In this document: in pieces, positions 8,296 to 29,452 of the stretch
Position numbering within the stretch: position 1 is the first letter of the stretch
Layout of the letters: each line of letters begins with the position of its first letter
Assembly: GCA_024276255.1 (NCBI GenBank)
Contig: JAJRXO010000126.1
Location: forward strand, 1 to 29,452
Length of the DNA stretch: 29,452 nt
Direction: 5' to 3'
Origin: Chloroflexota bacterium
GTDB lineage: Bacteria > Chloroflexota > Anaerolineae > J102
Position numbers and translations under genes: made by a program
The notes under the pieces: generated by a model
What the model was told of the DNA's origin: nothing
Databases searched by the model: none
Seen by the model: the letters and a program-made list of their open reading frames with translations, nothing else

Positions 8296-9438
8296 TTATC
8301 GCCGCCGGTGACGACGCCGGGTTGCCCTGGGACGAGATGGCTCCTCACCGGCCCCGGTCAGGCGTAGGGGCGGAATCTGCTCTGGTGGCAGCGCTGGCGG
8401 TTCCCACTGACGCACGGCTGCCAACATGGCATCGATACTTTCGGCCGGCATGCCTGGTGAGATGCCCCCTCCCAGAGACAAGATCAGTCCACCCCCTGGG
8501 GCTGCCCGATCCAGACAGTTCTTTGCCCACTCATATACGACTTCTGGCGGCTGTCGTGTCGCGATGTGCAAGGGAGGGATGTTGCCCATGAGGGCAATGC
8601 GGTTGCCGATGACCTTCTTTGTTTCCAGAAGATCCACGTCATACGTAAAATTGAGGACATCAAAACCAGCGCGGGTAAAAGCGGGAAAGAGATGGGCGCA
8701 GGGGGTGTCATTGTGATATACCCGGATCAGTCCTTCGAATTCGCCAAAAATGCGCTGCAGACAGGGCTCGACGAATTCCTCATAATGCTGCAATGACACC
8801 ATGCCGACAATGTCGTCAAGCAACATGATTCCCTCTGGCTCGTGCAGGATATCCAGCTGGGCATGCAGGAACTGGATCAGGGTGGTGGTAATTTTTTCCA
8901 CGATGCGATGAATGAGATCGGGATGTTGTACGATGCCCGTCATCAGGCTGTTGATGCCCATGATCCAACCGGCAGTCACCATGGGGCCACGCGCACATAC
9001 CATTTTGATACCCCCGCCCTCAGCCCGCAATCTTTCTTCGGCATAGCGATACAGCCGATAGACCAGGGGCATGAGCCCATCTTCATACACATTGGGCAGG
9101 GGCGCCTCGGCCCAATGTTCCAATGATGTGGTAACCGGCTCCAGGGCCGGGGGACTGTCGTCGTGCCAGTGGATGCGGACGCCGAATGCGGATGGTTCGA
9201 CCGCCATACCATACTCGACCCAAAAGCCCGGGATCCAAACTACGCCGGGAAATCGTGTAAGCAGGGCGCGCTGAATATCGAACCAGGTCTCGGGAAAAAG
9301 GTAATAATCCTTGGTGTTGATGCCGGCATAACCGGCCAACCAGGGACTGTCGACTATCAGTGCCAAAGGTGGTTTGGCGGGTTCGCCCAGGCGGGCCGCA
9401 AGTTTGAAGTCTTGCCAAAGAGTTGTATTGTTCATCAT
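8296..9438 (-). CDS. URO-D/MtaA-fold family protein (not HemE)
   Basis: GPMVTA, MLLDDIVG, YHNDTP, LMGNIPP, GGGLILSLGGG..PG; lacks the HemE RQAGR motif; Arg-rich C-terminal tail. Confidence 0.82.
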   Translation of the reverse strand: MMNNTTLWQDFKLAARLGEPAKPPLALIVDSPWLAGYAGINTKDYYLFPETWFDIQRALLTRFPGVVWIPGFWVEYGMAVEPSAFGVRIHWHDDSPPALEPVTTSLEHWAEAPLPNVYEDGLMPLVYRLYRYAEERLRAEGGGIKMVCARGPMVTAGWIMGINSLMTGIVQHPDLIHRIVEKITTTLIQFLHAQLDILHEPEGIMLLDDIVGMVSLQHYEEFVEPCLQRIFGEFEGLIRVYHNDTPCAHLFPAFTRAGFDVLNFTYDVDLLETKKVIGNRIALMGNIPPLHIATRQPPEVVYEWAKNCLDRAAPGGGLILSLGGGISPGMPAESIDAMLAAVRQWEPPALPPEQIPPLRLTGAGEEPSRPRATRRRHRRR

Positions 9439-17071: not shown

Positions 17072-18531
17072 AGCGACCTTCCTTGATGAGGGGATAAGCG
17101 TTTATGGCTTGTGATTGGAAAGATGTGTGGAAGTGAGCTAAAATCTAAATCAGTTGCCAGACCAAAAGGCGCTTGCAGGAGACTGCCAAGAGAGCATTGG
17201 CCTGCAATGATGCGAAGGCGGGGAGGAGTTTGACCATGCTTGACATAAAGATCAGAATGGTGTCGCATTACAGCCTCTTGCCAGGAAGGGGGGAACTGAT
17301 CGAGGCCACCGAAGTAGTGGTGCCCGTTGCGTTCCACATGGTGCAGGCCCAGAGTGGCCATTACGGTAAGATCCTGGTGTAGTGCGATGGGGCCAACATT
17401 GCTCAGGTCTTCGCCGCTGAGGATAATGGTTTGCGTTGGTTGCTGCTGCCGGAGATAGGACAGCAGGCAGGCATTGGCCACGCCCTTGAAAACGCCCTTG
17501 CAGTTTTTATGGCTGGTGCCAGCATAGCCATATGCCAGCGCCCGGCGCATACTGCCCAACTCGGCATCCGATTCGTCGATGATCATCGGTGGCCGGCCTG
17601 TCCAGTTCAGTAGCTGTTGTTGGGTGTCGGAGGTCAGGGCGATGACACGATGGAAAGGCTGTTCCACGAAGAGCAGTCGTTGTCCGAAAGCCGGCCACGC
17701 CGCGGATGTGCGGAAACGCTCCCAGAATCGTCGGAATGCTGCAACTTCGCGGAATTGTTCGTTGCCGTCGAGCGTAATGGTAAATGCATCCGTACGCGTT
17801 TCGATGATGGCTGCAATGCGTACCAGCCTGGGAATATCCTCCTCGGTTCCAGCGATCTTGATTTTGAAATAACGCAAACCGTATGTCTGGATACAGGCTT
17901 CAAGACTCTGTGGTAAACCATCATTGACCCGCTCATGCGGTGAAATCTCGGCCTCGGTGAGGGGATCAGCCATACCCACTGTGTGACGGATGAAAATCGT
18001 ATGGGCAGGCGACGCAGGCAGGAGTTGGGCTGGCTGGAGACCGGTCAATTCAGCATGCACCTGGCCCAGATCGATGCCCAGACGGTTGTCACGTATGGCT
18101 TTGGCAAAGGATACGTCCTCAGCCTTGCAGAAAGCATCGATAAGCGCCCGTTCAACAAGGCTGACTCCGAATTGCCACAGCAATGCCGGATACGGTGTGT
18201 CCTGCGCCCAGGCCTGCTGGGCAGCGTAAACGTGCTGCCACAGCCGGAAGACAGTGGGTGCAGAGCCAGTCTGCAGGGCATGTTGTGTTGCCATACTGAT
18301 CACGTCCAGCATGGCAGCCAGCTCCTCGTTGTAGGTCTGGGCCGCATCCTTGCTGAACCACTTGGGTACCAGGTTGTCGGCTGCCAGCCCCTCACTGAGC
18401 TTGCCATCCACATCCACCCGTAATCGCATTATTAGATGCGGCGTCTCGGTGAGGGTGGCAATACCGTAGTGGAAGGGTATGCGCGTATGCAAGTCAATCT
18501 GGTAAAAATCGGCAGCCAGGACGCGAATCAT
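17068..18531 (-). CDS. Large (487 aa) enolase-superfamily protein with MLE-type ligands, function unknown
   Basis: FKIK, LDGNEQ, VEQP, IDES, SHKNCKG. Start MIRV at 18531 overlaps the upstream stop (ATGA); its own stop overlaps the permease start. Confidence 0.8.
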   Translation of the reverse strand: MIRVLAADFYQIDLHTRIPFHYGIATLTETPHLIMRLRVDVDGKLSEGLAADNLVPKWFSKDAAQTYNEELAAMLDVISMATQHALQTGSAPTVFRLWQHVYAAQQAWAQDTPYPALLWQFGVSLVERALIDAFCKAEDVSFAKAIRDNRLGIDLGQVHAELTGLQPAQLLPASPAHTIFIRHTVGMADPLTEAEISPHERVNDGLPQSLEACIQTYGLRYFKIKIAGTEEDIPRLVRIAAIIETRTDAFTITLDGNEQFREVAAFRRFWERFRTSAAWPAFGQRLLFVEQPFHRVIALTSDTQQQLLNWTGRPPMIIDESDAELGSMRRALAYGYAGTSHKNCKGVFKGVANACLLSYLRQQQPTQTIILSGEDLSNVGPIALHQDLTVMATLGLHHVERNGHHYFGGLDQFPPSWQEAVMRHHSDLYVKHGQTPPRLRIIAGQCSLGSLLQAPFGLATDLDFSSLPHIFPITSHKRLSPHQGRSL

Positions 18532-19673
18532 GCGCCTACCTCCGCGACCACACGCAGGGTCTCTTCTGCCCTTGGGTACAGCGTCAGTCCCAGGCCGGGG
18601 CCGGTGGGCACTTGGATGCGGTCGGTATGCGGGAAAAAGCCATCGCCAGCCAGGCTTTCGGCCAGATACTGTGGGCCATTGAGTGCGCAGGGTTTGTCGA
18701 TGCCCGCCCAGGCAAAGAGATGCGCTGACGCAGCCAGCGAGAGATCGGGGTCGCACAGTCCTGAGCCCAGTAGGAAGATGCCGCGCTCCCTGGCCAGTTT
18801 CGCTATTTGCATCCCCTGCCAGATGCCCGCAGTGCGCCCTACCTTGAGTGTAAGCCCATCCATCATCCCCAGGTCCATGAAGGATTCCGCCTCCAACGGC
18901 GAGATAACGCCCTCGTCCATGACGATGGGCAAAGCACCCTGTTGGTGCAAGGTTTGATAGCCGGCGACGGACATTGGCGGCAAAGGAGATTCCAGTACGT
19001 CAACGCCGATATCGCTCAGCCGGGGCAGCGTCTGCAGGGCCGTACTCAGGTCGTAGCCGGTGTTGGCGTCGGCCCAACAGAAGCCATCCGGTGCAAAATC
19101 GCGAACCAGCCGCGCCAGCGCCAGATCGTAATCCGGTGCCTGCGGGGGACCGATCTTGAAGTTGAAATGCCGATAACCCCGTTCGTGGCCCGTCTGTAAT
19201 TGCGCTTCGGCCTGAGCAAGTGTGGGCGCATTGATCGTCCAGCTCAGCGTGAGTTCGGTCGGGCCATCCTCGGTGCCCAGCAGGTTTTGCATCGACACAC
19301 CGCGCTGCCGGCCTGCCAGATCGTAGCAGGCCAGATCGACAGCTGCCTGGCAAAGGGGCTGGCCGGTGGTCAGGCCCGGACAGATGGTCCGGTTCATGCG
19401 CCCGTGGATATCGGCAATATCTGCAGGATTGGCGCCCAAAAGCCGGGGCGCGAGATAGTTGGCGAGGGTGGTGGTCACCGTCTCCACCGTTTCATAGCTC
19501 CAATTGGGGACGGGTACGGCCTGCCCCCAGCCTTGATTGCCGGCGGCATCCGTTAATCGCAGCAAGACCGAAGGCCGGACGACGCGCCCATTCGGGCCGG
19601 GTTCAAAGAATTTGAACTCGCCCTGGAAGGGATAATCGAAGCGTCCGACTTCGATCCTGACTATCGAATGCAC
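18528..19673 (-). CDS. MLE-subgroup enolase-superfamily enzyme (epimerase/cycloisomerase-like)
   Basis: GWGQA, AAVDLACYD, FNFKIG, DAN, ESP, DEG, LKVGRTAG. GTG start at 19673 with AGGAG. Confidence 0.85.
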   Translation of the reverse strand: MHSIVRIEVGRFDYPFQGEFKFFEPGPNGRVVRPSVLLRLTDAAGNQGWGQAVPVPNWSYETVETVTTTLANYLAPRLLGANPADIADIHGRMNRTICPGLTTGQPLCQAAVDLACYDLAGRQRGVSMQNLLGTEDGPTELTLSWTINAPTLAQAEAQLQTGHERGYRHFNFKIGPPQAPDYDLALARLVRDFAPDGFCWADANTGYDLSTALQTLPRLSDIGVDVLESPLPPMSVAGYQTLHQQGALPIVMDEGVISPLEAESFMDLGMMDGLTLKVGRTAGIWQGMQIAKLARERGIFLLGSGLCDPDLSLAASAHLFAWAGIDKPCALNGPQYLAESLAGDGFFPHTDRIQVPTGPGLGLTLYPRAEETLRVVAEVGA

Positions 19674-19749
19674 GCGGATCTCCTGAAAAGGGGGTGGGAT
19701 GACTGATATGGCTCTCAACAAGGCGGGTTGTTCACTGCAACGAAGGTGT

Positions 19750-20856
19750 CTAATTCGTCCTTCGTCGATGCTGGCGCTGTTCGCGACGCGGCCTGCGCTT
19801 TTGATCTTGCAAGGCTTTAATAATGGTAGGGATATTCCGGTGAAGTTTTGGGTTGGCGCCCCAGTCGTGGGCAGCTCGTACCATGGCGGCTACATTTTCC
19901 AGCGGGGTGTGCTGGGGAAGTGAGCAACCCGGCGCCAGGATGTCGACGCCGTTGCCCAGGCATTCCAACGATGCCTGGTAGACCGTTTCCGGGTCGCCAT
20001 TGAGCAACACTTCCACGGTGGGTACGTAGCCGGCCAGCGCTACTTTGCCTTTGGCATACTTGCGTGCTTCACTCATGTCAACCCCTTCGTCGAAGCTGTA
20101 GCAGGTGGCGCCGCTCTCGGCAATGTAGGGCAGGTGATTGCTGGACTTGCCGCAAATATGCAAGATAGTGGGGCCTTTGATGCTGGCACACAGGCGCTGG
20201 TGATAGGGTAGGATGAAGTCCCGGTAGGTTTGATGTGAGATAAGATCGCCCGAGCAGGTGGCCTCTCCCAGGACGATGGCGTCGGCACCGGCATCGATCT
20301 GGGCATTTGCATAGCGGGTGGCCAGATCAGTGAGAGGCTCCAGAATCTGATGGACATAGTCGGGATGCGTGATGATCCAGGGGAAGAGATTGGGAAAACC
20401 AAAGAGTTTGGCGGCTAGGGCAAAGGGCCCCACGATGGAGGAGATGACGGCCACCTCGTTATCGTAACGCTTACGCAGACGGCCGATGGCATCCAGCACG
20501 ACCGGCACCCGCCCCCGATCCAGGAAGTCGGTGGGGATCAAAAGTTCGTCGGGATGATTCCAGATGGGATAGATGTCGGTGGGCAGGGTATCCAGGGTGC
20601 CGTAATCGATTTCCAAGCCCAGAACCTCAACCTCGACGGTCATGCCAAAAGGCAGCTTGATGGCTTCGATCTGGCAGTGTTCCCAGATGGACGCGGCTAG
20701 GCCGGCCAGTTGACGTGCATCTTTGTGGGCCTCTGGATAGAAAATGCCTGCCTTTTCCATCATTCTCACAGTAATACCCGTGACCACCGCCGCTACAGGC
20801 GGACGATCGACGGGTTGCAGGTGCAGTGCGTTCAGAAAGCGGGTTTTGGCGTTCAT
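19750..20856 (-). CDS. MtaA/CmuA-family methyltransferase-like protein (URO-D fold)
   Basis: RPPV N-terminus, VGPFALA, LHICG and LAPGC Zn-ligand motifs. Confidence 0.85.
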   Translation of the reverse strand: MNAKTRFLNALHLQPVDRPPVAAVVTGITVRMMEKAGIFYPEAHKDARQLAGLAASIWEHCQIEAIKLPFGMTVEVEVLGLEIDYGTLDTLPTDIYPIWNHPDELLIPTDFLDRGRVPVVLDAIGRLRKRYDNEVAVISSIVGPFALAAKLFGFPNLFPWIITHPDYVHQILEPLTDLATRYANAQIDAGADAIVLGEATCSGDLISHQTYRDFILPYHQRLCASIKGPTILHICGKSSNHLPYIAESGATCYSFDEGVDMSEARKYAKGKVALAGYVPTVEVLLNGDPETVYQASLECLGNGVDILAPGCSLPQHTPLENVAAMVRAAHDWGANPKLHRNIPTIIKALQDQKRRPRREQRQHRRRTN

Positions 20857-21570: not shown

Positions 21571-21599
21571 TTGCCAAATGCGGCAACATATATTACAAT
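21571..21599 (+). promoter_or_regulatory. sigma70-type promoter for the rightward arm
   Basis: TTGCCA-N17-TACAAT. Confidence 0.65.
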
Positions 21600-21604
21600 A
21601 TGCC

Positions 21605-21631
21605 TATCAGCCTGTATGATAATATATGATA
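21605..21631. promoter_or_regulatory. Candidate GntR-family operator
   Basis: TATCA-N7-TGATA palindrome (21605-21621) plus TATGATA direct repeats (21615-21621, 21625-21631). Confidence 0.5.
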
Positions 21632-21647
21632 CGATCGCACTTGTCAA
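21619..21647 (-). promoter_or_regulatory. sigma70-type promoter for the leftward arm
   Basis: Minus strand TTGACA-N17-TATTAT. Confidence 0.75.
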
Positions 21648-21687
21648 ATTCATCAATGGTGCTGAACACTTCATGCAAGGAGTACAA

Positions 21688-22389
21688 ATGTCTTTCACCC
21701 CACCTGAGTTATTTCATAAAACCCTGGTCGAGCAAGTTACCGATGCCATCATGAAGATGATCGAGGCGGAGGGGCTGAAACCGGGCGATAAATTACCGTC
21801 AACCGCTGCTTTAACCGAGATCTTTGGTGTCAGTCGTCCGGTTGTGCGGGAGGGGTTGAAGATGTTGGAGGGGCGGGGAGTCATCGAGATTACAGGAGGC
21901 CGTACGGCTGTCATACGTCCCGTGAGCGGTGAGGTGCTGCATTCGTTTTTCGAGCGGGTGGTCACTTTCGAACGTGAGAAGGTTCGGGAGATCCTGGAAG
22001 TGCGCTACGGTATCGAAATGCAGTGCGCTCGACTGGCAGCCCGCCGTCGTACACCAGAGCAGGCCAAGGCTCTACAAAAGCTGGTGGCCGAGATGGCAAA
22101 ATACCTGCAGGATGCCGATACCTATGCTGAGCTCGATGTACAGTTCCATTTGTTGTTGGCGGAAGCCACCCATAACAGCTTGTTGTATCATTTGGTGCAC
22201 AGCATTCGCGATGTATTGCGCGATGTGATCCGCGAGGGCCTGGATCACCGCCTCAGCGAGAATGAACTGCATCTGGTGCAGGTGGCGCACGAACGTATCG
22301 TCAGCAAGATCGTTGAGGGGGATTCTGACGGCGCTACTCAAGCAATGGCCTTCCACTTCGACGACGCCCTACGTGCTATTTTTACATAA
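21688..22389 (+). CDS. FadR-subfamily GntR regulator
   Basis: LKPGDKLPS...FGVSRPVVREGL wHTH, DVQFH in FCD. Start at ATG 21688 with AGGAG. Confidence 0.93.
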   Translation: MSFTPPELFHKTLVEQVTDAIMKMIEAEGLKPGDKLPSTAALTEIFGVSRPVVREGLKMLEGRGVIEITGGRTAVIRPVSGEVLHSFFERVVTFEREKVREILEVRYGIEMQCARLAARRRTPEQAKALQKLVAEMAKYLQDADTYAELDVQFHLLLAEATHNSLLYHLVHSIRDVLRDVIREGLDHRLSENELHLVQVAHERIVSKIVEGDSDGATQAMAFHFDDALRAIFT

Positions 22390-22409: not shown

Positions 22410-23558
22410 ATGAAACAGGAACCCAGACCGGCCGAATTGATACCGAAGCTGCAGCATGCCTTTGAATTTGCCCAGCGGCAGGTCAAGCAATTGATCACCG
22501 CCTACCCCGACTTCTTCCCCATATACACGCAGGGGGGGAAGTGGAAGCACACGGGCGAGGCATGGACAAACTGGTGCGAAGGTTTTTTGGGCGGCATGAT
22601 GTGGCTATTTCATCGTCGCTGTGGCAGTTCTTTCTGGCGCCAGCAGGCCGAGCACTATTCTCGCCTTCTGGAACCCCGCAAGTATGACCGCAACGTCCAT
22701 GATCTGGGGTTTGTTTTCTGGTCCTCCTGGAAGCGGTGGTATGATCTCACAGGTGATCCGCCGTTGAACGAGGTAATTATCACCGCCGGGCAGACCATGA
22801 GCCTGCGTTTCAAAGAAAAAGGTCAGTATCTACGATCCTTTGTGGCCGACAACTCGCTCTTTATCGACATCATGATGAATGTGGGAATCGTCTTTTATGC
22901 GGCTCAGCAAACCGACGATGCCGACCTGCTGCGCAAGGCCCATGCCCACTGCCTGACCACTCGGCGCACGCTGGTGCGAGGTGACGGTTCCACCGCCCAC
23001 GAGGGCCTTTTCGACCTGGCGAGCGGCGAGTTCCTGCGGCAGTCTACCCATCAGGGCTGGCGAGGCGATTCGGCCTGGGCCAGGGGACAGGGTTGGGCGT
23101 TGTATGGCTTTAGTACTGCCTATGAGATGACGGGCGAGCGTAAGTATCTGCAAACGGCCAAGATGTGCGCCGACTATTATATTGAAAGCACCTCCTTTGA
23201 TGATGATGCCCCCTTCGGGCCAGGAGTACCGCCCAACGACTGGCAGGAACCGGGCAGTCTGGCCGAGAGTTCGGCTGCTGCCATTGCTGCCAGCGGCCTG
23301 CTGGATCTGGCCCGTCTGGATCAGGACCCCGTGCACGCTGCCCGCTATCGTCAGGCTGCCCTCATCATTCTCGACACCCTCACCGGCCCCGACTATCTGG
23401 CTGATCACACGCCAGGTTGGGAGGGCATTCTCCTGCATGGCAGCTATCATCAGCGTAAGGGCCTGGGCGTGGATGAAAGTGTGATGTGGGGTGAGCATTT
23501 CTTTGTGGAGGCCATCGATAAGGCCTTGACCCTGCTGGAAGGAGAAAGCCAGGCATGA
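22410..23558 (+). CDS. ugl: GH88 unsaturated glucuronyl hydrolase, cytoplasmic
   Basis: WCEGF, HDLGF, FIDIMMN (two catalytic Asp positions), HQG...SAWARGQGWALYGF, SSAAAIAASG; no signal peptide. Confidence 0.88.
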   Translation: MKQEPRPAELIPKLQHAFEFAQRQVKQLITAYPDFFPIYTQGGKWKHTGEAWTNWCEGFLGGMMWLFHRRCGSSFWRQQAEHYSRLLEPRKYDRNVHDLGFVFWSSWKRWYDLTGDPPLNEVIITAGQTMSLRFKEKGQYLRSFVADNSLFIDIMMNVGIVFYAAQQTDDADLLRKAHAHCLTTRRTLVRGDGSTAHEGLFDLASGEFLRQSTHQGWRGDSAWARGQGWALYGFSTAYEMTGERKYLQTAKMCADYYIESTSFDDDAPFGPGVPPNDWQEPGSLAESSAAAIAASGLLDLARLDQDPVHAARYRQAALIILDTLTGPDYLADHTPGWEGILLHGSYHQRKGLGVDESVMWGEHFFVEAIDKALTLLEGESQA

Positions 23559-24334
23559 ACAGAGAGCAAGTCGCTATTGTAACCGGCAGCAGCCGGGGGA
23601 TCGGCCGGGGCATTGCCCTGGCGTTGGCCGAAAACGGCTGGCGCATCGTCATCAACTATCGTAACAAGCGCACAGCAGCCGACCAGACGGCGCGAGATGT
23701 ACGCTCTCAGGGCGGCGAAGCCCTGGTTGTGCAGGCCGATATCGGCGATCTGGACAGCTTGCAAGGGCTGGTGGATGTGACGCTGGCGCAATGGGGCCGC
23801 ATTGACATGCTGGTGAACAACGCTGGCATTGCTCCCCGTCAGCGTCTGGACATCCTGCAGACCACACCAGAAAGCTACGACGAGGTGATGGCCGTGAATT
23901 TGCGGGGACCCTTTTTCCTCAGCCAGCGCGTGGCGCGGGAGATGATTCGCTTGTTGCAGCTGGGCGTGATCAACGCCCCCAAGATCGTCAATATCGGGTC
24001 TATCAGCGCCTACACCAGCTCCACCTCACGCGGTGAATACTGCATCAGCAAGGCCGGCGTGGGCATGATGACCAAACTGTGGGCCGATCGCCTGGCCGAG
24101 TATGGCATCAATGTGTATGAAATCCGTCCCGGCATTATCGCCACCGACCTCACCGCGGCGGTAAAAGAGAAATATGACCGGCTTATCCTCGAAGAGGGTC
24201 TAACCCCGATTCGTCGCTGGGGCCGGCCAGACGACATCGCTAAAGCAGTGCTTGCCATCGCCAGTGATCTGTTCCCCTTCTCCACCGGCGAGGTGATCAA
24301 TGTTGATGGTGGCTTCCATTTACATCGTCTGTAA
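23555..24334 (+). CDS. Classical SDR oxidoreductase
   Basis: TGSSRGIG, NNAG, S...YCISK; ATGA overlap with the GH88 gene. Confidence 0.92.
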   Translation: MNREQVAIVTGSSRGIGRGIALALAENGWRIVINYRNKRTAADQTARDVRSQGGEALVVQADIGDLDSLQGLVDVTLAQWGRIDMLVNNAGIAPRQRLDILQTTPESYDEVMAVNLRGPFFLSQRVAREMIRLLQLGVINAPKIVNIGSISAYTSSTSRGEYCISKAGVGMMTKLWADRLAEYGINVYEIRPGIIATDLTAAVKEKYDRLILEEGLTPIRRWGRPDDIAKAVLAIASDLFPFSTGEVINVDGGFHLHRL

Positions 24335-24381
24335 ATCTCCCTTCCCACCCCGAAAACCAAACATTCAACCAGGAGGAAACT

Positions 24382-25416
24382 ATGCCCAGGATCGTCACAT
24401 TTGGCGAGATAATGCTGCGGCTTTCGCCACCGGGACATTTTCGTTTTTCGCAGGCCCGCAGCTTTGATGTCATCTACGGCGGCGGTGAGTCCAATGTCGC
24501 CGTGTCGCTGGCCCACTTCGGGATGAATACCGAGTTCGTAACTCGCCTTCCGGCCAATGATATCGGCGACGCCTGCCTGAATTACTTGCGTCAGTTTGGC
24601 GTGGGGGTACGACACGTGGCACGAGGGGGCGAGCGTCTGGGTATTTATTTTTTGGAACATGGCGCCGTAAGCCGCGGCAGCAAGGTGATCTACGACCGGG
24701 CCCGCTCGGGCCTGGCCACCATTGAGCCCGGTATGATCGACTGGGACGCCGTGTTTGCCGAGGCTGACTGGTTCCATTGGACAGGAATCACGCCCGCCAT
24801 TTCGGCGGGAGCAGCGGCCACCTGCCTGGAGGCAGTGAAGGCTGCCAGAGCACACGGCCTTACTGTGTCCTGCGACCTCAATTATCGCAAGAAGTTGTGG
24901 AAGTGGGGCAAGGAACCAGGCGCAGTCATGGGGGAGCTGGTACAGTATTGCGACATCGCCGTCGGCAACGAGGAGGACGCGGACAGGGTGTTCGGCATCC
25001 ATGCCCCACACACCGATGTCACCTCGGGCAGGCTCGATGCCGCTCAATATGAGTACGTTTGCCACGAGCTGGGTACGCGTTTTCCCAACCTGCACACCAT
25101 CGCCATCACCCTGCGTGGCTCCCTCTCGGCCAGTCACAACACCTGGAGCGCCGTGCTCTGGCATGGCGGGCAACTCTACTTCGGCCCGCAATACGATATC
25201 ACGCACATCGTGGATCGGGTGGGCGGTGGCGACAGTTTTGTAGCCGGGCTGATCTACGGCCTGCTCAGCTATGGCGATGACAGGCAAAAGACGCTGAATT
25301 TTGCCGTGGCCGCCTCGGCACTCAAACATACTATTTTCGGTGATTTCAATCTTGTCACCGTGCCGGAAGTAGAAAAACTCATGGCCGGCGATGCCTCCGG
25401 CCGGGTGAGCCGTTAA
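24382..25416 (+). CDS. kdgK: 2-keto-3-deoxygluconate kinase (PfkB)
   Basis: FGEIMLRLSP, GGGESNVA, DLNYRKKLW, GNEED, DRVGGGDSF. Confidence 0.92.
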   Translation: MPRIVTFGEIMLRLSPPGHFRFSQARSFDVIYGGGESNVAVSLAHFGMNTEFVTRLPANDIGDACLNYLRQFGVGVRHVARGGERLGIYFLEHGAVSRGSKVIYDRARSGLATIEPGMIDWDAVFAEADWFHWTGITPAISAGAAATCLEAVKAARAHGLTVSCDLNYRKKLWKWGKEPGAVMGELVQYCDIAVGNEEDADRVFGIHAPHTDVTSGRLDAAQYEYVCHELGTRFPNLHTIAITLRGSLSASHNTWSAVLWHGGQLYFGPQYDITHIVDRVGGGDSFVAGLIYGLLSYGDDRQKTLNFAVAASALKHTIFGDFNLVTVPEVEKLMAGDASGRVSR

Positions 25417-25436: not shown

Positions 25437-26123
25437 ATGGCTAAATTCTCACGTCTGACCGTGCTTAATACTATGATCGAAACCGGTCTGGTGCCGGTTT
25501 TCTACCACCCCGATGTGGAGGTGGCCGCACAGATAGTGCAGGCCTGTGTCGATGGCGGCGCCCGCTGCATCGAATTCACCAACCGCGGAGATCAGGCCCA
25601 TCTCGTTTTCGGCGAGTTGGTACGCCGTTTTTGGGATGACGAGCGGGTGATCCTGGGCGTGGGCTCGGTGATCGATCCGATAGCCGCGGGACTGTATATG
25701 CAACTGGGCGCCAATTTCGTGGTGGGACCGGTGCTTAACCCCGAAGTCGCCCGCCTGTGTAACCGTCGCAAGGTCGCCTATTCACCGGGTTGCGGCAGTG
25801 TCAGTGAGATATCGGCGGCTGAAGAACTGGGCGTGGAGATCGTCAAGGTCTTCCCCGGCAGCCAGGTCGGTGGTCCCGGCTTTGTCAAAGCCGTACGCGG
25901 CCCCATGCCCTGGACCCGTATTATGCCCACCGGTGGCGTATCGCCCGACGAAGAAAATCTGCGAGCCTGGTTTGCTGCTGGCGTGGCCTGTGTGGGCATG
26001 GGCAGCAAGCTCATTAGCAAAGATCTGGTGGCCGCCCGCGACTTCGCCGCCCTGCGCCAGCGTACTGCTGCAACCGTGGCGCTGATTCAAAATCTCAAGG
26101 CTGAAGTCGGAGAAAATTTGTGA
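25437..26123 (+). CDS. eda: KDPG/KHG aldolase
   Basis: EFTNR, GVGSV, KVFPG (Schiff-base Lys), MPTGGV; adjacent to kdgK. Confidence 0.92.
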   Translation: MAKFSRLTVLNTMIETGLVPVFYHPDVEVAAQIVQACVDGGARCIEFTNRGDQAHLVFGELVRRFWDDERVILGVGSVIDPIAAGLYMQLGANFVVGPVLNPEVARLCNRRKVAYSPGCGSVSEISAAEELGVEIVKVFPGSQVGGPGFVKAVRGPMPWTRIMPTGGVSPDEENLRAWFAAGVACVGMGSKLISKDLVAARDFAALRQRTAATVALIQNLKAEVGENL

Positions 26124-26212: not shown

Positions 26213-27661
26213 ATGAGCAACGGCTATCCCCGCATTGCCCGTCTGCGCACCCCGGACCTGTTTCGCAATCGCATCGAGGAGCTGGGAATCCACCTGCCCT
26301 TTGATGAAACGGTTAGCCCCGCCCCCGATGGCCCGCTGGCCCAACCCTACACGTTAAAAAACGGTCGCATCATCGGTAATCGCTTTGCCGTACACCCCAT
26401 GGAAGGCTGGGACGGAACGATCGACGGCCTGCCCACCGTGTACACCCGTCGGCGATGGGCCAACTTTGGCAAGAGCGGCGGCAAGCTGATCTGGGGAGGG
26501 GAGGCCGTGGCTGTGCGCCATGACGGGCGCGCCAACCCCAACCAGTTGCTGATGGCAGAGCGGAATCTGAGTGGTTTTGCTGCGCTACACCGCACCCTGG
26601 TGGACGCGCATCGCCAGGCACATGGCCGCACCGATGATCTGCTGATAGGCCTGCAACTGACCCACTCTGGCCGCTTTGCCCGCCCCAACATCAAAACCCG
26701 CCTCGAACCCAAGATACTCTACCATCATCCCCTGCTGGACAGGCTCTTTCACGTGGACCCAGAGTTGCCTGTGCTCACGGATGGCGAGATCGATGATCTG
26801 ATCGGCGATTTTGTGCAGGCGGCGAAGCTGGCAGCCTCGGTCGGCTTTGATTTCGTGGATATCAAGCATTGCCACGGCTATCTGGGACACGAGTTTCTCA
26901 GCGCCTACGCTCGGCCGGGGCGTTATGGCGGCAGCCTTGAGAATCGCACTCGCTTCTTGCGGGAGATCGTGGCGGGCATCCGCCGCGAGGTGCCCGAACT
27001 GATGATCGGTGTGCGCATCAGCGCCTTTGATTTCCCGCCCTTCCGGCCGGGCCCCGACGGCCGCGGAGTGCCGCTATGGTTGGACGACAAGGAGGGGTTG
27101 TATCCCTTCGGCTTCGGCGCCGATCATGATGATCCCTTCCAGGTAGCCATCGACGAGATCCTGGAATTCTTGCAACTGCTGCAGGCGTTGGACATCGAGC
27201 TGGTTAATCTTTCGTGCTGCAGTCCCTATTACAATCCTCATTTCATGCGTCCTGCCTACTTCCCTCCCTCCGACGGTTACCTGCCCCCCGAAGATCCGCT
27301 GGTGGGCGTGGCCCGACAGATCAATGTGGTCGCTTCGCTCAAGGAACACATGCCCGATTTAGCCATGGTGGGCACGGGCTACAGCTATCTGCAGGAGTGG
27401 CTGCCTAACGTGGCGCAATACGTGGTGCGTACCGGCATGGTGGATTTTGTGGGCCTGGGGCGCATGATCCTGGCTTATCCTGAGATGCCAGCGGACGTGC
27501 TGGCCGGCCGGGAACTGGCCCGCAAGCGCATCTGTCGTACCTTTAGCGATTGCACGACGGCCCCCCGCAATGGCCTGATATCGGGCTGCTATCCCCTGGA
27601 CGATTTTTACAAATCGCTGCCGGAAGCGATTCGCTTAAAGGAGGCCAAGCACAAAGCATAA
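26213..27661 (+). CDS. NADH:flavin oxidoreductase, Old Yellow Enzyme-like
   Basis: [42 protein letters not shown]. Confidence 0.9.
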
Positions 27662-29259
27662 TGCAAATCATCTCATCAGCACAAGCTGCAAGCCTGCTCC
27701 AGGATGGCGATACCCTCCTGATCGGCGGCTCGGGCGGCGGTCATGCCGTGCCTGAGTCCCTCATTGTTGCTCTGGCTGAACGTTTTCAGGCCGAAGGGCG
27801 GCCCCGCAATCTCACCTTGCTGCACCCGGTGGGTTTGGGCGACATGGATAGCCGGGGTGTGGACAGATTGGCGGGGAAAGGCCTGCTCAAGCGCATTGTT
27901 ACCGGTGCCCTGGTCAATACACCCGCCATTCAGCGCATGGCCCGCGCAGACCTCATCGAGGCCTACACCCTGCCGCAGGGCGCGCTCTCCCAGCTCATGC
28001 GCGAGATGGCGGCCGGACGGCCCGGCCTGCTCTCGCATGTGGGCTTGCACACCTTTGTCGATCCCCGGTATGGCGGCGGCCGCCAGAGCCCTTCAGCCAG
28101 AGAAGATCTGGTGGAATTGGTGGAGCTGGCCGGCGGGGAGTGGCTGTTCTACAAGCCCATTTCCGTGGATGTGGCCTTTTTACGGGGCACCACGGCTGAC
28201 GAGGATGGCAACGTGACCATGGAGAAAGAGGCGGTCTTTGGCGAGATGCTATCCATGGCGCAGGCAACCCGGCGCTACGGCGGCGTGGTTATCGCGCAGG
28301 TCGAACGCCTTGCCCAACGCCACACCTTGCCCCCCAAGCAGGTAAAGATCCCTGGCATGCTGGTTGATCTGGTAGTCGTCGATCCACAGCAACGACAGAC
28401 CTACGTTACTGACTACAGCCCTGCCTACGCCGGCGAGTTGCGTGTTCCCCTGCAAGATATCCCGTCCCTGCCTTTCGATGCCCGTAAGGTGATTGCCCGT
28501 CGGGCCGCCATGGAGCTCTTTCCCGGCGCTGTGTGCAATCTGGGAGCCGGTGTCTCGACCGGTATTGCCAACATCGCCGCCGAGGAGGGCTTTCTCGACC
28601 AGATCATCCTCACCAACGAGCAGGGCCTGATCGGTGGGGCTCCGGCTTCGGGAGTAGATGCGGGCGCTGCCGTCAATTACGATGCCATTGTGGACCAGCC
28701 CTATCAGTTTGATTTTTACGATGGCGGCGGCCTGGACCTGGCTTTCCTCTCCTTTGCCCAGGTCGATGCCGAGGGCAGCGTCAATATCAGCCGTTTTGGC
28801 GACCGCATCATCGGCATCGGTGGCTTCCAGAACATCGCTCAAAACGCCAAGACCGTGATCTTCAGCGGCACCTTCACCGCCGGGGGACTGGATATCACCT
28901 GGGAGCAGGGCCGCACCGTGATTCGCCGTGAGGGCCGCCATGCCAAATTTGTGGGGCAGCTCGAGCAGGTATCCTACAACGGCGCCTATGCTGCTTCGCT
29001 GGGACAGAATGTGCTCTTCGTCAGCGAGCGGGCCGTGTTTCGTCGCCAACGCCAGGGCATGGTTCTGGTGGAGATCGCGCCCGGTGTGGATCTACAGCGG
29101 GATGTGCTCGCTCACATGGCTTTTCGTCCCCTGATTTCGCCTCAGTTGCGGTTGATGGATGAACGCTTATTCCGGCCCGAGCTGATGAACTACGCCCCCA
29201 CGCTACTGGCCAAACCCCGGATCAACCTGCCTGCCCGGTTGCGAAACCTGATAACGTAA
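27661..29259 (+). CDS. Family I fused acyl-CoA:acetate/3-ketoacid CoA-transferase (YdiF/Pct-like)
   Basis: YTLPQG, GLHTFVDPR, NLGAG, catalytic ExGxxG (EQGLIG), YDGGGLD, GGFQNI. Start ATG 27661 overlaps the OYE stop (TAATG). Confidence 0.92.
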   Translation: MQIISSAQAASLLQDGDTLLIGGSGGGHAVPESLIVALAERFQAEGRPRNLTLLHPVGLGDMDSRGVDRLAGKGLLKRIVTGALVNTPAIQRMARADLIEAYTLPQGALSQLMREMAAGRPGLLSHVGLHTFVDPRYGGGRQSPSAREDLVELVELAGGEWLFYKPISVDVAFLRGTTADEDGNVTMEKEAVFGEMLSMAQATRRYGGVVIAQVERLAQRHTLPPKQVKIPGMLVDLVVVDPQQRQTYVTDYSPAYAGELRVPLQDIPSLPFDARKVIARRAAMELFPGAVCNLGAGVSTGIANIAAEEGFLDQIILTNEQGLIGGAPASGVDAGAAVNYDAIVDQPYQFDFYDGGGLDLAFLSFAQVDAEGSVNISRFGDRIIGIGGFQNIAQNAKTVIFSGTFTAGGLDITWEQGRTVIRREGRHAKFVGQLEQVSYNGAYAASLGQNVLFVSERAVFRRQRQGMVLVEIAPGVDLQRDVLAHMAFRPLISPQLRLMDERLFRPELMNYAPTLLAKPRINLPARLRNLIT

Positions 29260-29297
29260 AATCAGCCGTCTCTGCCCTTTCATGAGGAAAAAACAGT

Positions 29298-29452
29298 ATG
29301 GATACAAAAGTCGAATCCGAAGCGATTGCCGTCAGCTATCCGCGCGAGGGCGTGGCCCTGATTCAGATCCAGTCCAAACCGCTGGGCGTACTGCGTTTTG
29401 GCGTCAAGCAGGCGCTGCTCGCCCGCCTGCTTGAACTGGAGTCGGTTAAGAA
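29298..29452 (+). CDS. Probable enoyl-CoA hydratase/isomerase (crotonase) N-terminus, partial
   Basis: Hand translation MDTKVESEAIAVSYPREGVALIQIQSKPLGVLRFGVKQALLARLLELESVK; GAGGA RBS; resembles the crotonase N-terminal pattern; only 51 aa visible. Confidence 0.55.
   Translation, partial: MDTKVESEAIAVSYPREGVALIQIQSKPLGVLRFGVKQALLARLLELESVK

Follow-up and report, generated by a model that had tools for sequence, protein, structure and literature searches.

An OYE-like flavoprotein and a set of CoA genes appended to a putative unsaturated glucuronide operon of a Chloroflexota bacterium

Unsaturated uronates are a common currency in the breakdown of pectin, alginate, ulvan, glycosaminoglycans and bacterial exopolysaccharides, and we know of only two forms of the step that leads from the product of GH88 enzymes to 2-keto-3-deoxygluconate (KDG), namely KduI/KduD and DhuI/DhuD. 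In a 29,452-nucleotide stretch of DNA from a Chloroflexota bacterium (contig JAJRXO010000126.1, hereafter the window), genes for GH88 and Entner-Doudoroff enzymes are followed by an OYE-like gene, a CoA-transferase gene and the start of a further gene. What do these appended genes contribute, and do they belong together? A preliminary description had treated them as one trio, acting either on unsaturated uronates or their furan/pyran by-products as CoA thioesters, or on a downstream short-chain acid as a fermentative electron sink.

The genes of the string all point the same way and either overlap or are separated by short gaps, in which no terminator-like site was found (Table 1). The trio directly follows eda, as originally described, and the ATG of the CoA-transferase gene begins at 27661 on the last base of the TAA stop of the OYE-like gene (27659-27661), giving a TAATG overlap. 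The gap between eda and the OYE-like gene measures 89 nt and carries a good Shine-Dalgarno sequence (AAGGAG); a terminator there was rejected, no such site being found, and a small hairpin in the gap was no better than shuffled sequences (z -0.96). Promoter-like sites in the region were seen only at 21571-21647, and the start codon of the regulator gene is uncertain, its ORF being open from 21571. An Rfam search of the window gave no match. An antisense ORF at 24010-25329 was dismissed as a miscall of simple ORF calling in a high-GC locus.

Table 1. Genes of the string in the window, with the matches that support their assignment
Feature	Position	Strand	Remarks
GntR/FCD-family regulator	21685..22389	+	opens the + strand string; Pfam GntR 1.3e-14, FCD 6.8e-26
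GH88 unsaturated glucuronyl hydrolase	22410..23558	+	PDB 1VD5 (Bacillus UGL) 7.6e-46
SDR, PRK12745 type	23555..24334	+	NF009386, 328 bits against a cut-off of 250
2-keto-3-deoxygluconate kinase (KdgK), PfkB family	24382..25416	+	Pfam PfkB 4.6e-31; KDG/KDGal kinase models
KDPG/KHG aldolase (Eda)	25437..26123	+	NCBIfam NF005499 equivalog, 342 bits against a cut-off of 275
OYE-like FMN barrel protein, 482 aa	26213..27661	+	Pfam Oxidored_FMN 1.9e-26
Fused family-I CoA-transferase, YdiF type, 532 aa	27661..29259	+	CoA_trans 1.4e-36; 2AHU 2.3e-138
Crotonase-fold gene, 5' end, 51 aa	29298..29452	+	ORF cut by contig end

The 51-residue fragment at the end of the window had no family match when taken alone. 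A second contig of the same assembly (C280) overlaps positions 29089-29452 with two mismatches, and on it the complete gene encodes a protein of 265 residues with the crotonase fold and a Pfam ECH_1 match (2.1e-49), which bears out the earlier designation as a probable crotonase. The same contig supplied the downstream genes, an FAH-family gene (223 aa; FAA_hydrolase 6.5e-55) and then a Zn-ADH gene (ADH_N 1.1e-31). The proposed operon would thus read GntR, GH88, SDR, KdgK, Eda, OYE-like, CoA-transferase, crotonase variant, FAH and Zn-ADH, and in a genome of the same genus (G306) it ends after a 358-residue Zn-ADH. The gene string recurs in genomes G306, G309, G312 and G315 (in the last with broken frames) and at loci L004, L005, L007 and L067, being kept across genera together with the sugar genes; this conservation shows that it is not a chance juxtaposition in one contig. 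The region is best explained as the distal part of one operon of about ten genes for unsaturated glucuronides.

D98 and D153 of the GH88 protein align with the catalytic D88 and D149 of Bacillus UGL, and the His, Gln, Arg and Trp of the site are also conserved. The SDR is not a KduD equivalog (168.7 against a cut-off of 338.85 for kduD TIGR01832); its best equivalog model is NF009386, and the closest solved SDRs are uncharacterised. The CoA-transferase, which has fused alpha and beta domains, matches E. coli YdiF (2AHU) over residues 3-511 and is about half identical to it, with E320 aligning with the catalytic E333; against the FadX model NF052271 it scored 416 bits, under the cut-off of 750. 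In the crotonase, the GGGxE motif reads GGGAV, so that the first catalytic Glu is replaced by V116, while the second, E136 of the PE motif, is kept. The valine is found in all nine operon orthologues, whereas the ECHs of other CoA-transferase loci read GGGxE, indicating that the one-Glu variant is specific to the operon. The function of hydration that had been ascribed to this gene is therefore not secure.

The OYE-like protein scored 93.6 bits against Pfam PF00724 (cut-off 27), the match covering only profile positions 2-229 of 342. Its AlphaFold model (pLDDT 90.2) matched the folds of OYE, 2-naphthoyl-CoA reductase (NCR) and 2,4-dienoyl-CoA reductase (DCR) at Z 34-37. The active site contains K218-H-C-H221-G-Y223, a K-H-C-H-G-Y motif that is invariant in the family, and the protein also has E64. 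In place of the carbonyl-binding His/His or His/Asn pair, the first position is K218 and the second H221, while Y223 aligns with the proton-donating Tyr in the H-G-Y of TOYE. The equivalents of the FMN contacts, Q148, R268 and G414-L-G-R417, line up with TOYE and do not vary among 49 sequences; we take the roles of the reference residues, the Gln of QLxHxGR, the Arg of VRxS and the C-terminal GxGR, to be those of YqjM. After the barrel, the protein carries C441-x2-F444-x2-C447-x11-C459, in register with the CxxCxxCx11C of histamine dehydrogenase but with F444 at the second Cys, and hence without the four-Cys motif of a [4Fe-4S] cluster. It ends at residue 482 and lacks the C-terminal FAD/NAD(P)H-binding domains. 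The 120 closest clusters, from a search limited to proteins of 265-844 aa, span 462-492 aa, identity within the family is about 60% across phyla, and names in the ESM Atlas are generic only. The protein belongs to a distinct, widespread family with a relic iron-sulfur motif, CxxFxxCx11C.

We compared gene neighbourhoods across phyla. As simple ORF calling had erred in high-GC loci, the co-occurrence counts were based on tblastn; one unpublished genome (G368, locus L014) adds one count to the locus and KduI tallies, and no claim depends on it. An SDR gene was co-oriented within 5 kb of the OYE-like gene in 31 of 80 loci and a GH88-like gene was near it in 22 of 80. In 31 of 80 loci, drawn from four phyla and showing four gene orders, the OYE-like gene adjoined GH88 and/or SDR, in some cases together with KdgK and Eda. 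Among 301 genomes sampled from the phylum, the OYE-like gene was present in four, all of which have a close GH88 orthologue (itself found in 5/301). About half of the OYE-like loci lack GH88 and SDR and have DHDPS/DUF993-like, Gfo/Idh/MocA, VOC or aminotransferase neighbours, suggesting that the substrate of the family may be broader than 4-deoxy-L-threo-5-hexosulose uronate (DKI), the GH88 product. CoA-transferase and crotonase genes stood beside it in only 4 of 80 loci and in the window's own family, an arrangement confined to one Chloroflexota lineage; elsewhere in the class, five further families have it with the transferase absent at E<=1e-80, and in G066 and G099 the two are unlinked. 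The linkage to uronate genes that the preliminary description proposed to look for was thus seen for the OYE-like gene (31/80), the CoA-transferase (5/20) and FAH (two genomes), and the three genes as a unit found no support (4/80). The trio is rejected on co-occurrence, and the appended genes are two separate add-ons, the OYE-like gene with the SDR and the CoA gene set. Since the OYE-like gene occurs elsewhere without the transferase, its product is unlikely to need a CoA thioester. In the literature, we found no paper linking an OYE, flavin oxidoreductase or ene-reductase with GH88, KduD, uronates or KDG, and nothing relevant joining a CoA-transferase with GH88.

The association of the OYE-like gene with SDR and GH88 often coincides with a missing isomerase. 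Neither a KduI nor a DhuI-type isomerase is encoded in the operon or in the operons of relatives, no other conserved candidate isomerase was found in the clusters, and the bacterium's own genome (85% complete) gave no match to PF04962 (KduI) or PF02502 (RpiB/LacAB, the DhuI family). The complete genomes G001-G003 and G099 likewise gave no PF02502 match. Among PF04962 matches in five cluster-bearing genomes, the high-scoring ones checked (G001, G005) proved with NCBIfam models to be IolB, adjoining IolC, and true KduI was confined to the Bacteroidota. Scored with NF002091, and with many of the genomes being incomplete MAGs, true KduI was found in none of the cluster-bearing genomes of Chloroflexota (0/17), Planctomycetota (0/2) or Acidobacteriota (0/1), and elsewhere in the genome in 10 of 11 cluster-bearing Bacteroidota. 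Its absence alone says little, because KduI is rare throughout the phylum (1/301 genomes). Chloroflexota GH88 loci without the OYE-like gene (G156, G183) have an IolB-like cupin and a KduD-like SDR in its place.

Because KduI is missing from the cluster-bearing Chloroflexota, Planctomycetota and Acidobacteriota, and the DhuI family from four complete genomes, we propose the OYE-like protein and the SDR for the isomerase/reductase position. They would act on DKI and supply KDG to KdgK and Eda, standing where KduI/KduD or DhuI/DhuD stand. The flavoprotein might catalyse either a redox-neutral isomerisation or an ene-reduction whose substrate would be an enone or enoate derived from DKI; K218 and H221 would hold the (keto)carboxylate, and Y223 would be the proton donor. 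Against this, OYE enzymes are reductases and not aldose-ketose isomerases, and the family shares a genome with KduI in 10 of the 11 Bacteroidota and lies together with KduI, IclR and SDR genes at locus L013. The reading as a whole, an operon of about ten genes with this pair at the isomerase/reductase step and a separate CoA module, seems to us evenly balanced between right and wrong. More tentatively, and with rather less than even confidence, the pair may be a third, non-homologous solution for DKI to KDG in Chloroflexota, Planctomycetota and Acidobacteriota without the known isomerases, joined in one Chloroflexota lineage by a CoA-dependent side branch.

That side branch would be a lineage-specific module of the YdiF-type CoA-transferase, the one-Glu crotonase, FAH and Zn-ADH, handling a small acid from the same catabolism as a CoA thioester. 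FAH and the dehydrogenase may cleave a 2,4-diketo-3-deoxy acid to pyruvate and a C3 acid, which would then be CoA-activated. Of 20 Chloroflexota loci with a homologue of the CoA-transferase, five have GH88-like, KdgK or Eda genes next to it, the GH88-like neighbours being weak matches (26-29% identity) in three of the five, and the other 15 are unrelated settings. Gene orders include ABC, GH88, SDR, CoA-transferase (G248); ECH, CoA-transferase, ABC, GH88, KdgK, Eda (G070); LacI, ABC, DHDPS, SDR, CoA-transferase, ECH, FAH (G039); and ECH, GH88 (G132). In G091, one 17.5-kb stretch holds a GH88-like gene and a TRAP transporter upstream, then MaoC, CoA-transferase, MaoC and EtfBA, with KdgK and Eda downstream. 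In two genomes, a canonical GH88-cupin-KduD-Eda-KdgK cluster contains an FAH gene. This recurrence of CoA-transferase, hydratases and FAH beside other GH88/KdgK/Eda loci makes a CoA-dependent side branch of uronate catabolism plausible.

Of the two uses proposed for the trio, a downstream short-chain acid would fit the CoA genes better than the uronate itself. Were an unsaturated uronate or a furan/pyran by-product activated by the transferase and, as a CoA thioester, reduced by the OYE-like protein and hydrated by the crotonase, the adjacency and translational coupling of the three genes would be expected. Over the greatest length, moreover, the OYE-like fold is nearest to two enzymes of CoA esters, NCR and DCR, and genes for CoA-transferases and hydratases are repeatedly found close to GH88-like genes in the phylum. 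This reading nevertheless appears very improbable, as 76 of 80 loci, and the five other families of the class, have the OYE-like gene with neither CoA-transferase nor crotonase, the gene is unlinked from the transferase in the two genomes named above, the double bond has already been consumed by GH88, and the first catalytic Glu is missing from nine of nine operon crotonases.

In a different view, the OYE-like protein would be an NAD(P)H ene-reductase of the usual kind, and the CoA genes would form a route for short-chain acids (acetoacetate, 3-hydroxybutyrate, crotonate, acrylate), a carbon or electron sink merely sharing the uronate promoter. The degree of identity to YdiF, the many SDR-CoA-transferase and CoA-transferase-ECH pairs without uronate genes in the phylum, and the EtfBA genes of one locus agree with it. 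We consider it unlikely, since the partners of the OYE-like gene across phyla are GH88 and SDR and not CoA genes, the string is conserved across genera with sugar genes, and the non-canonical crotonase is specific to the operon. Similarly low is the probability that we assign to detoxification, in which the ene-reductase would clear the reactive enones or enals that form when DKI and similar 2-keto-3-deoxy sugars lose water, while the main flux passed through another, unrecognised isomerase. The conserved Tyr and FMN contacts, the VOC/glyoxalase-fold and Gfo/Idh/MocA neighbours and the co-residence with KduI speak for such a function; the cross-phylum identity and fixed pairing with one SDR clade indicate a specific step of the main pathway, and the clusters offer no other conserved isomerase candidate.

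GH88 without either known isomerase is found in many Chloroflexota, Planctomycetota and Acidobacteria, groups that abound in sludge, sediments and soils, and a widespread and sharply conserved family of flavoproteins, annotated only as 'NADH:flavin oxidoreductase', is the obvious candidate for this gap. If its members are reductases instead, they would form a new family of sugar-acid ene-reductases whose Lys/His site is unusual and which keep a relic iron-sulfur motif. The CoA module, if true, would bring CoA-thioester chemistry to a uronate pathway for the first time.

Compared with the canonical uronate pathway (UGL/GH88, KduI or DhuI, KduD or DhuD, KdgK, KdgA/Eda), the operon shares a GH88 with both catalytic Asp residues, an SDR, KdgK and Eda, and its presumed product is likewise KDG, followed by pyruvate and glyceraldehyde-3-phosphate. 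It differs in that no KduI- or RpiB/LacAB-family isomerase was found in the cluster or the genome, the SDR falls below the KduD cut-off, and the OYE-like flavoprotein is an extra conserved member. With the thermophilic-like OYEs YqjM, TOYE and TsER, this protein shares the (beta/alpha)8 FMN barrel (Z ~36), the Gln, Arg and GxGR contacts and the H-G-Y Tyr, but it is about 140 residues longer, with an extra C-terminal Cys segment, and has Lys where the HxxH pair starts with His, as well as Glu for the Cys/Thr near the flavin. The barrel and cluster-bearing linker of the FMN/[4Fe-4S] flavoenzymes (DCR, NCR, trimethylamine and histamine dehydrogenases) superpose on it, NCR at Z 37.3 over residues 35-482 with the Cys spacing in register, whereas the second Cys is an invariant Phe and the FAD/NAD(P)H domain is absent. 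YdiF, a short-chain acyl-CoA:acetoacetate transferase, matches the operon enzyme over its full length with the catalytic Glu conserved, although the setting here is a sugar-acid operon and not ydiQRSTD-type fatty-acid genes. Finally, the non-phosphorylative L-rhamnose/L-fucose route employs a 2-keto-3-deoxy acid 4-dehydrogenase and an FAH-family 2,4-diketo-3-deoxy acid hydrolase, and it resembles the operon in having an FAH-family protein beside a dehydrogenase among sugar-acid genes. The best NCBIfam match of the operon FAH is the L-2,4-diketo-3-deoxyrhamnonate hydrolase model, at 158 against a cut-off of 500; unlike that route, the operon has the short 223-residue form of FAH, a Zn-ADH in place of an SDR dehydrogenase, and neither a dehydratase nor a lactonase.

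The window is one whole contig (C696). A divergent promoter-like region precedes a string of + strand genes that runs to the contig end. The gene calls and the overlapping start of the CoA-transferase (CoAT) bear out the preliminary description, in which the flavoprotein of the Oxidored_FMN family (OYE-like), CoAT and crotonase genes were co-oriented after eda. Contig C280 of the same MAG (704 contigs, 85% complete) shares 364 bases with the window (C280 1742-2105, window 29089-29452; 2 mismatches), and both contigs end there. Read in reverse, C280 continues the window directly, and the assembly break was probably caused by strain variation. The remainder of the crotonase and the genes beyond it, missing from the preliminary description, were obtained from C280: the complete crotonase-fold protein has 265 aa, and after it come an FAH-family protein (223 aa) and a Zn-ADH, with start codons that overlap the preceding stops. 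Genome G306, of the same genus, carries the same string, ending with a 358-aa Zn-ADH and with convergent genes beyond. No terminator-like site was found between eda and the OYE-like gene, and the 89 nt between them contain a small GC hairpin that is no better than those of shuffled sequences. The same-strand string, its continuation on C280 and the lack of a terminator at this gap therefore confirm the observation and extend it to an operon of about ten genes.

Features of the window
Feature	Position	Strand	Remark
URO-D family gene	8296-9438	-
Polytopic membrane protein, 406 aa	12657-13877	-	no family match
ORF, 562 aa	17068-18756	-	no Pfam/NCBIfam match
MR_MLE gene	18528-19721		upstream of the 562-aa ORF
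URO-D family gene	19750-20856	-
Promoter-like region	21571-21647		divergent
GntR/FCD regulator		+	first in string, before GH88; family match
GH88 gene	22410-23558	+
SDR	23555-24334	+
Antisense ORF, 439 aa	24010-25329	-	opposite kdgK
KdgK	24382-25416	+
Eda	25437-26123	+
Oxidored_FMN protein (OYE-like), 482 aa	26213-27661	+
CoA_trans protein (CoAT), 532 aa	27661-29259	+	ATG overlaps preceding TAA by one base
ORF cut by contig end	29298-29452	+	first 51 codons; crotonase start

The antisense ORF, which misled length-based ORF picking, was rejected as a gene, being a GC-rich shadow frame. At a locus of genome G315 (L152, contig C25, 3890-13761) the GH88-to-Zn-ADH string recurs with GH88, KdgK, OYE-like and CoAT each split or truncated; either the operon is decaying or the assembly is rich in errors.

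The GH88 protein is a true homologue of unsaturated glucuronyl hydrolases: it matched 1VD5 at 7.6e-46, its catalytic Asp pair (D98, D153) is present and the remaining site residues also align. GH88, KdgK and Eda were assigned to their uronate-pathway families, and no KduI/DhuI-type isomerase was found in the operon. The SDR scored above the NF009386 (PRK12745) equivalog cut-off and far under that of KduD, placing it outside the KduD equivalog, and the solved proteins nearest to it are uncharacterised. The operon is a variant form of the established route for unsaturated uronates.

In the known route, a KduI or DhuI isomerase is needed between the GH88 product, 4-deoxy-L-threo-5-hexosulose uronate (DKI), and the substrate of KduD/DhuD. 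The window's own genome, at 85% completeness, gave no match to PF04962 or PF02502. Among cluster-bearing genomes, true KduI (NF002091) was found in none of the 17 Chloroflexota, two Planctomycetota and one Acidobacteriota; it was found in 10 of 11 Bacteroidota, and also with loci L013 and L014. An RpiB/LacAB family gene was absent from four complete genomes with GH88-SDR-OYE (G001-G003, G099); a PF04962 match in G001 was rejected as KduI, as it is an IolB adjoining IolC. Two Chloroflexota loci with GH88 and without the OYE-like gene (L155, G183 contig C3, 7878-13306; L154, G156 contig C6) carry GH88, FAH, an IolB-like cupin, a KduD-like SDR, Eda and KdgK. Chloroflexota GH88 clusters carry either a cupin and a KduD-like SDR, or the OYE-like gene and a PRK12745-type SDR. 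At L154 and L155 the cupin at the isomerase position is of the IolB and not the KduI type, and the FAH-family protein lies inside the uronate cluster.

We analysed 80 genome loci with the OYE-like gene. An SDR partner (co-oriented, at least 40% identity, within 5 kb) was present at 31, a GH88-like gene at 22, KdgK at 8 and Eda at 5. Membership of these clusters is constant and the order shuffled: GH88-SDR-OYE in Chloroflexota, GH88-OYE-SDR in Bacteroidota, OYE-GH88-SDR-Eda-KdgK in Planctomycetota and OYE-SDR-GH88 in one acidobacterium, the GH88-like genes of Bacteroidota and Planctomycetota giving sub-threshold Pfam matches only. In an even draw of 301 genomes from the phylum, four had the OYE-like gene, all with the close GH88 orthologue that is itself found in only five of the 301; SDR, or GH88 and SDR, lay directly upstream in three of the four. 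The supposed link of the appended genes to uronate metabolism holds, since the OYE-like gene accompanies GH88/SDR in several phyla. The three genes do not form one unit: CoAT and crotonase adjoin the OYE-like gene at only 4 of the 80 loci, and G066 and G099 have OYE-like as well as CoAT but not linked to each other, the distance in G099 being 1.44 Mb. CoAT occurs in 35 of the 301 genomes. In the window's own family the same five genomes have both genes, always in the same string; in five other families of the class OYE-like is present and CoAT absent at E<=1e-80. The earlier suggestion that the uronate itself is processed as a CoA thioester does not hold. The remaining OYE-like loci have neighbours of other sugar types. 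At 12 loci without GH88 (L010, L016, L019, L053 and eight others) a weak DHDPS/DUF993-like gene always lies immediately upstream, co-oriented, often alongside two Gfo/Idh/MocA genes, which makes this a second conserved setting of the family; VOC proteins, an SSF transporter and a 660-aa FAD_binding_2 protein are further neighbours at the remaining loci.

Mainly because cupin and OYE-like protein are complementary, and five-gene sets of GH88, SDR, OYE-like, KdgK and Eda recur in several orders, we propose to place the OYE-like protein with the SDR between DKI and 2-keto-3-deoxygluconate. The two would together occupy this position, the flavoprotein catalysing either a redox-neutral isomerisation or the ene-reduction of a DKI-derived enone. 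Against this, KduI is rare in the phylum anyway (1/301), at one locus KduI and IclR are found along with SDR and OYE-like, and both systems are present in Bacteroidota; moreover, it is not evident how an OYE fold would carry out such chemistry. A literature search found no paper connecting the OYE-like family with uronates.

CoAT matched E. coli YdiF over its full length, with the catalytic Glu kept (E320, equivalent to E333). The crotonase (C280 1102-1896, -) matched enoyl-CoA hydratases at 1e-40, with the motif GGGAV for GGGxE; the first catalytic Glu position is therefore Val116, and the second, E136, is kept. GGGAV is present in all nine operon-type orthologues (L148-L152, L004, L005, L007, L067), and crotonases adjoining CoAT homologues at other loci are canonical. 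The operon crotonase may be isomerase-type or otherwise non-hydratase. The FAH protein is similar to L-2,4-diketo-3-deoxyrhamnonate hydrolase and to the HpaG C-domain, with scores well under equivalog level. One conjecture is that FAH and a dehydrogenase might cleave a 2,4-diketo-3-deoxy acid to pyruvate and a C3 hydroxy acid, which could then be handled as a CoA ester.

CoAT homologues in Chloroflexota (40-59% identity) have varied settings. A GH88-like gene was found at 5 of 20 such loci, three of these also with KdgK and Eda homologues; only G070 and G248 gave solid GH88 matches. GH88 is rare in the phylum (10/301), so its recurrence beside CoAT is unlikely by chance. The sets comprise LivK-type ABC, GH88, SDR and CoAT (G248); family-III CoA-transferase, aldehyde dehydrogenase, enoyl-CoA hydratase (ECH), CoAT, ABC, GH88, KdgK and Eda (G070); Zn-ADHs, CoAT, MaoC hydratase and GH88-like (G183 and G242); MaoC, CoAT, MaoC and EtfB/EtfA (G091; L116, contig C96, 7517-11935), with GH88-like and a TRAP transporter upstream and, farther down within the same 17 kb, homologues of KdgK and Eda. 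Beyond these five, there are ECH and GH88 (G132), and LacI, ABC, DHDPS, SDR, CoAT and ECH, with FAH further on (G039). A KduI/IolB-type gene is missing from all of these loci. In our reading, sugar-acid catabolism in Chloroflexota has a recurrent CoA-dependent accessory made up of CoAT, a partner with the hydratase fold, a dehydrogenase and FAH. At L116 there is also a CCG/4Fe-4S oxidoreductase, lying opposite.

Best matches of the window's proteins are from Caldilineae and Chloroflexota MAGs. Its two URO-D family genes lie amid sugar-acid enzymes (MR_MLE, Gfo/Idh/MocA, a xylose-isomerase-like barrel) and ABC transporters, an odd setting for a methylcobamide-type methyltransferase; the gene nearer the operon is above the MtaA/CmuA methyltransferase cut-offs (343 bits vs 244). 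The 562-aa ORF has enolase-superfamily-like motifs (KIKIAG, DGNEQF, IIDES) and overlaps the MR_MLE gene by 229 nt, so its true start is probably internal. The polytopic membrane protein adjoins an NMT1-type ABC transporter in the stretch of highest GC (0.645) and strong AT skew (0.285).

The OYE-like family is large and tightly conserved, comprising at least 120 clusters among the matches listed (66-89% identity), with about 57-69% identity even across phyla; among the proteins of 265-844 aa that were searched, all members have about 480 aa and generic names only. The confident AlphaFold model (pLDDT 90.2) superposed on thermophilic-like OYEs (Z ~36, ~320 residues) and, over a greater length, on 2,4-dienoyl-CoA reductase and on the barrel and cluster-linker of 2-naphthoyl-CoA reductase (Z 37.3, residues 35-482). 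The protein is without an FAD/NAD(P)H domain. The fold over the cluster-linker, a Cys relic and the missing domain thus point to a truncated relative of FMN/Fe-S flavoenzymes. It lacks the canonical His/His(Asn) pair of OYEs and the four Cys and FAD domain of the Fe-S relatives, and is therefore filed as a distinct OYE-like family; lacking these defining features, it was assigned neither as ene-reductase nor as dienoyl-CoA reductase. Compared with OYEs, it shares the fold, the residues that contact FMN and the Tyr that follows the second His, whereas Lys replaces the first His of the substrate-binding pair (K-H-C-H-G-Y is invariant) and Glu64 the near-flavin Cys or Thr; judging from the residues, a carboxylate or alpha-keto acid would be a fitting partner for the Lys/His pair. 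Compared with histamine dehydrogenase, the spacing of its C-terminal C441-x2-F444-x2-C447-x11-C459 is alike and in register with CxxCxxCx11C (at a marginal E-value), but an invariant Phe stands where that enzyme has the second Cys.
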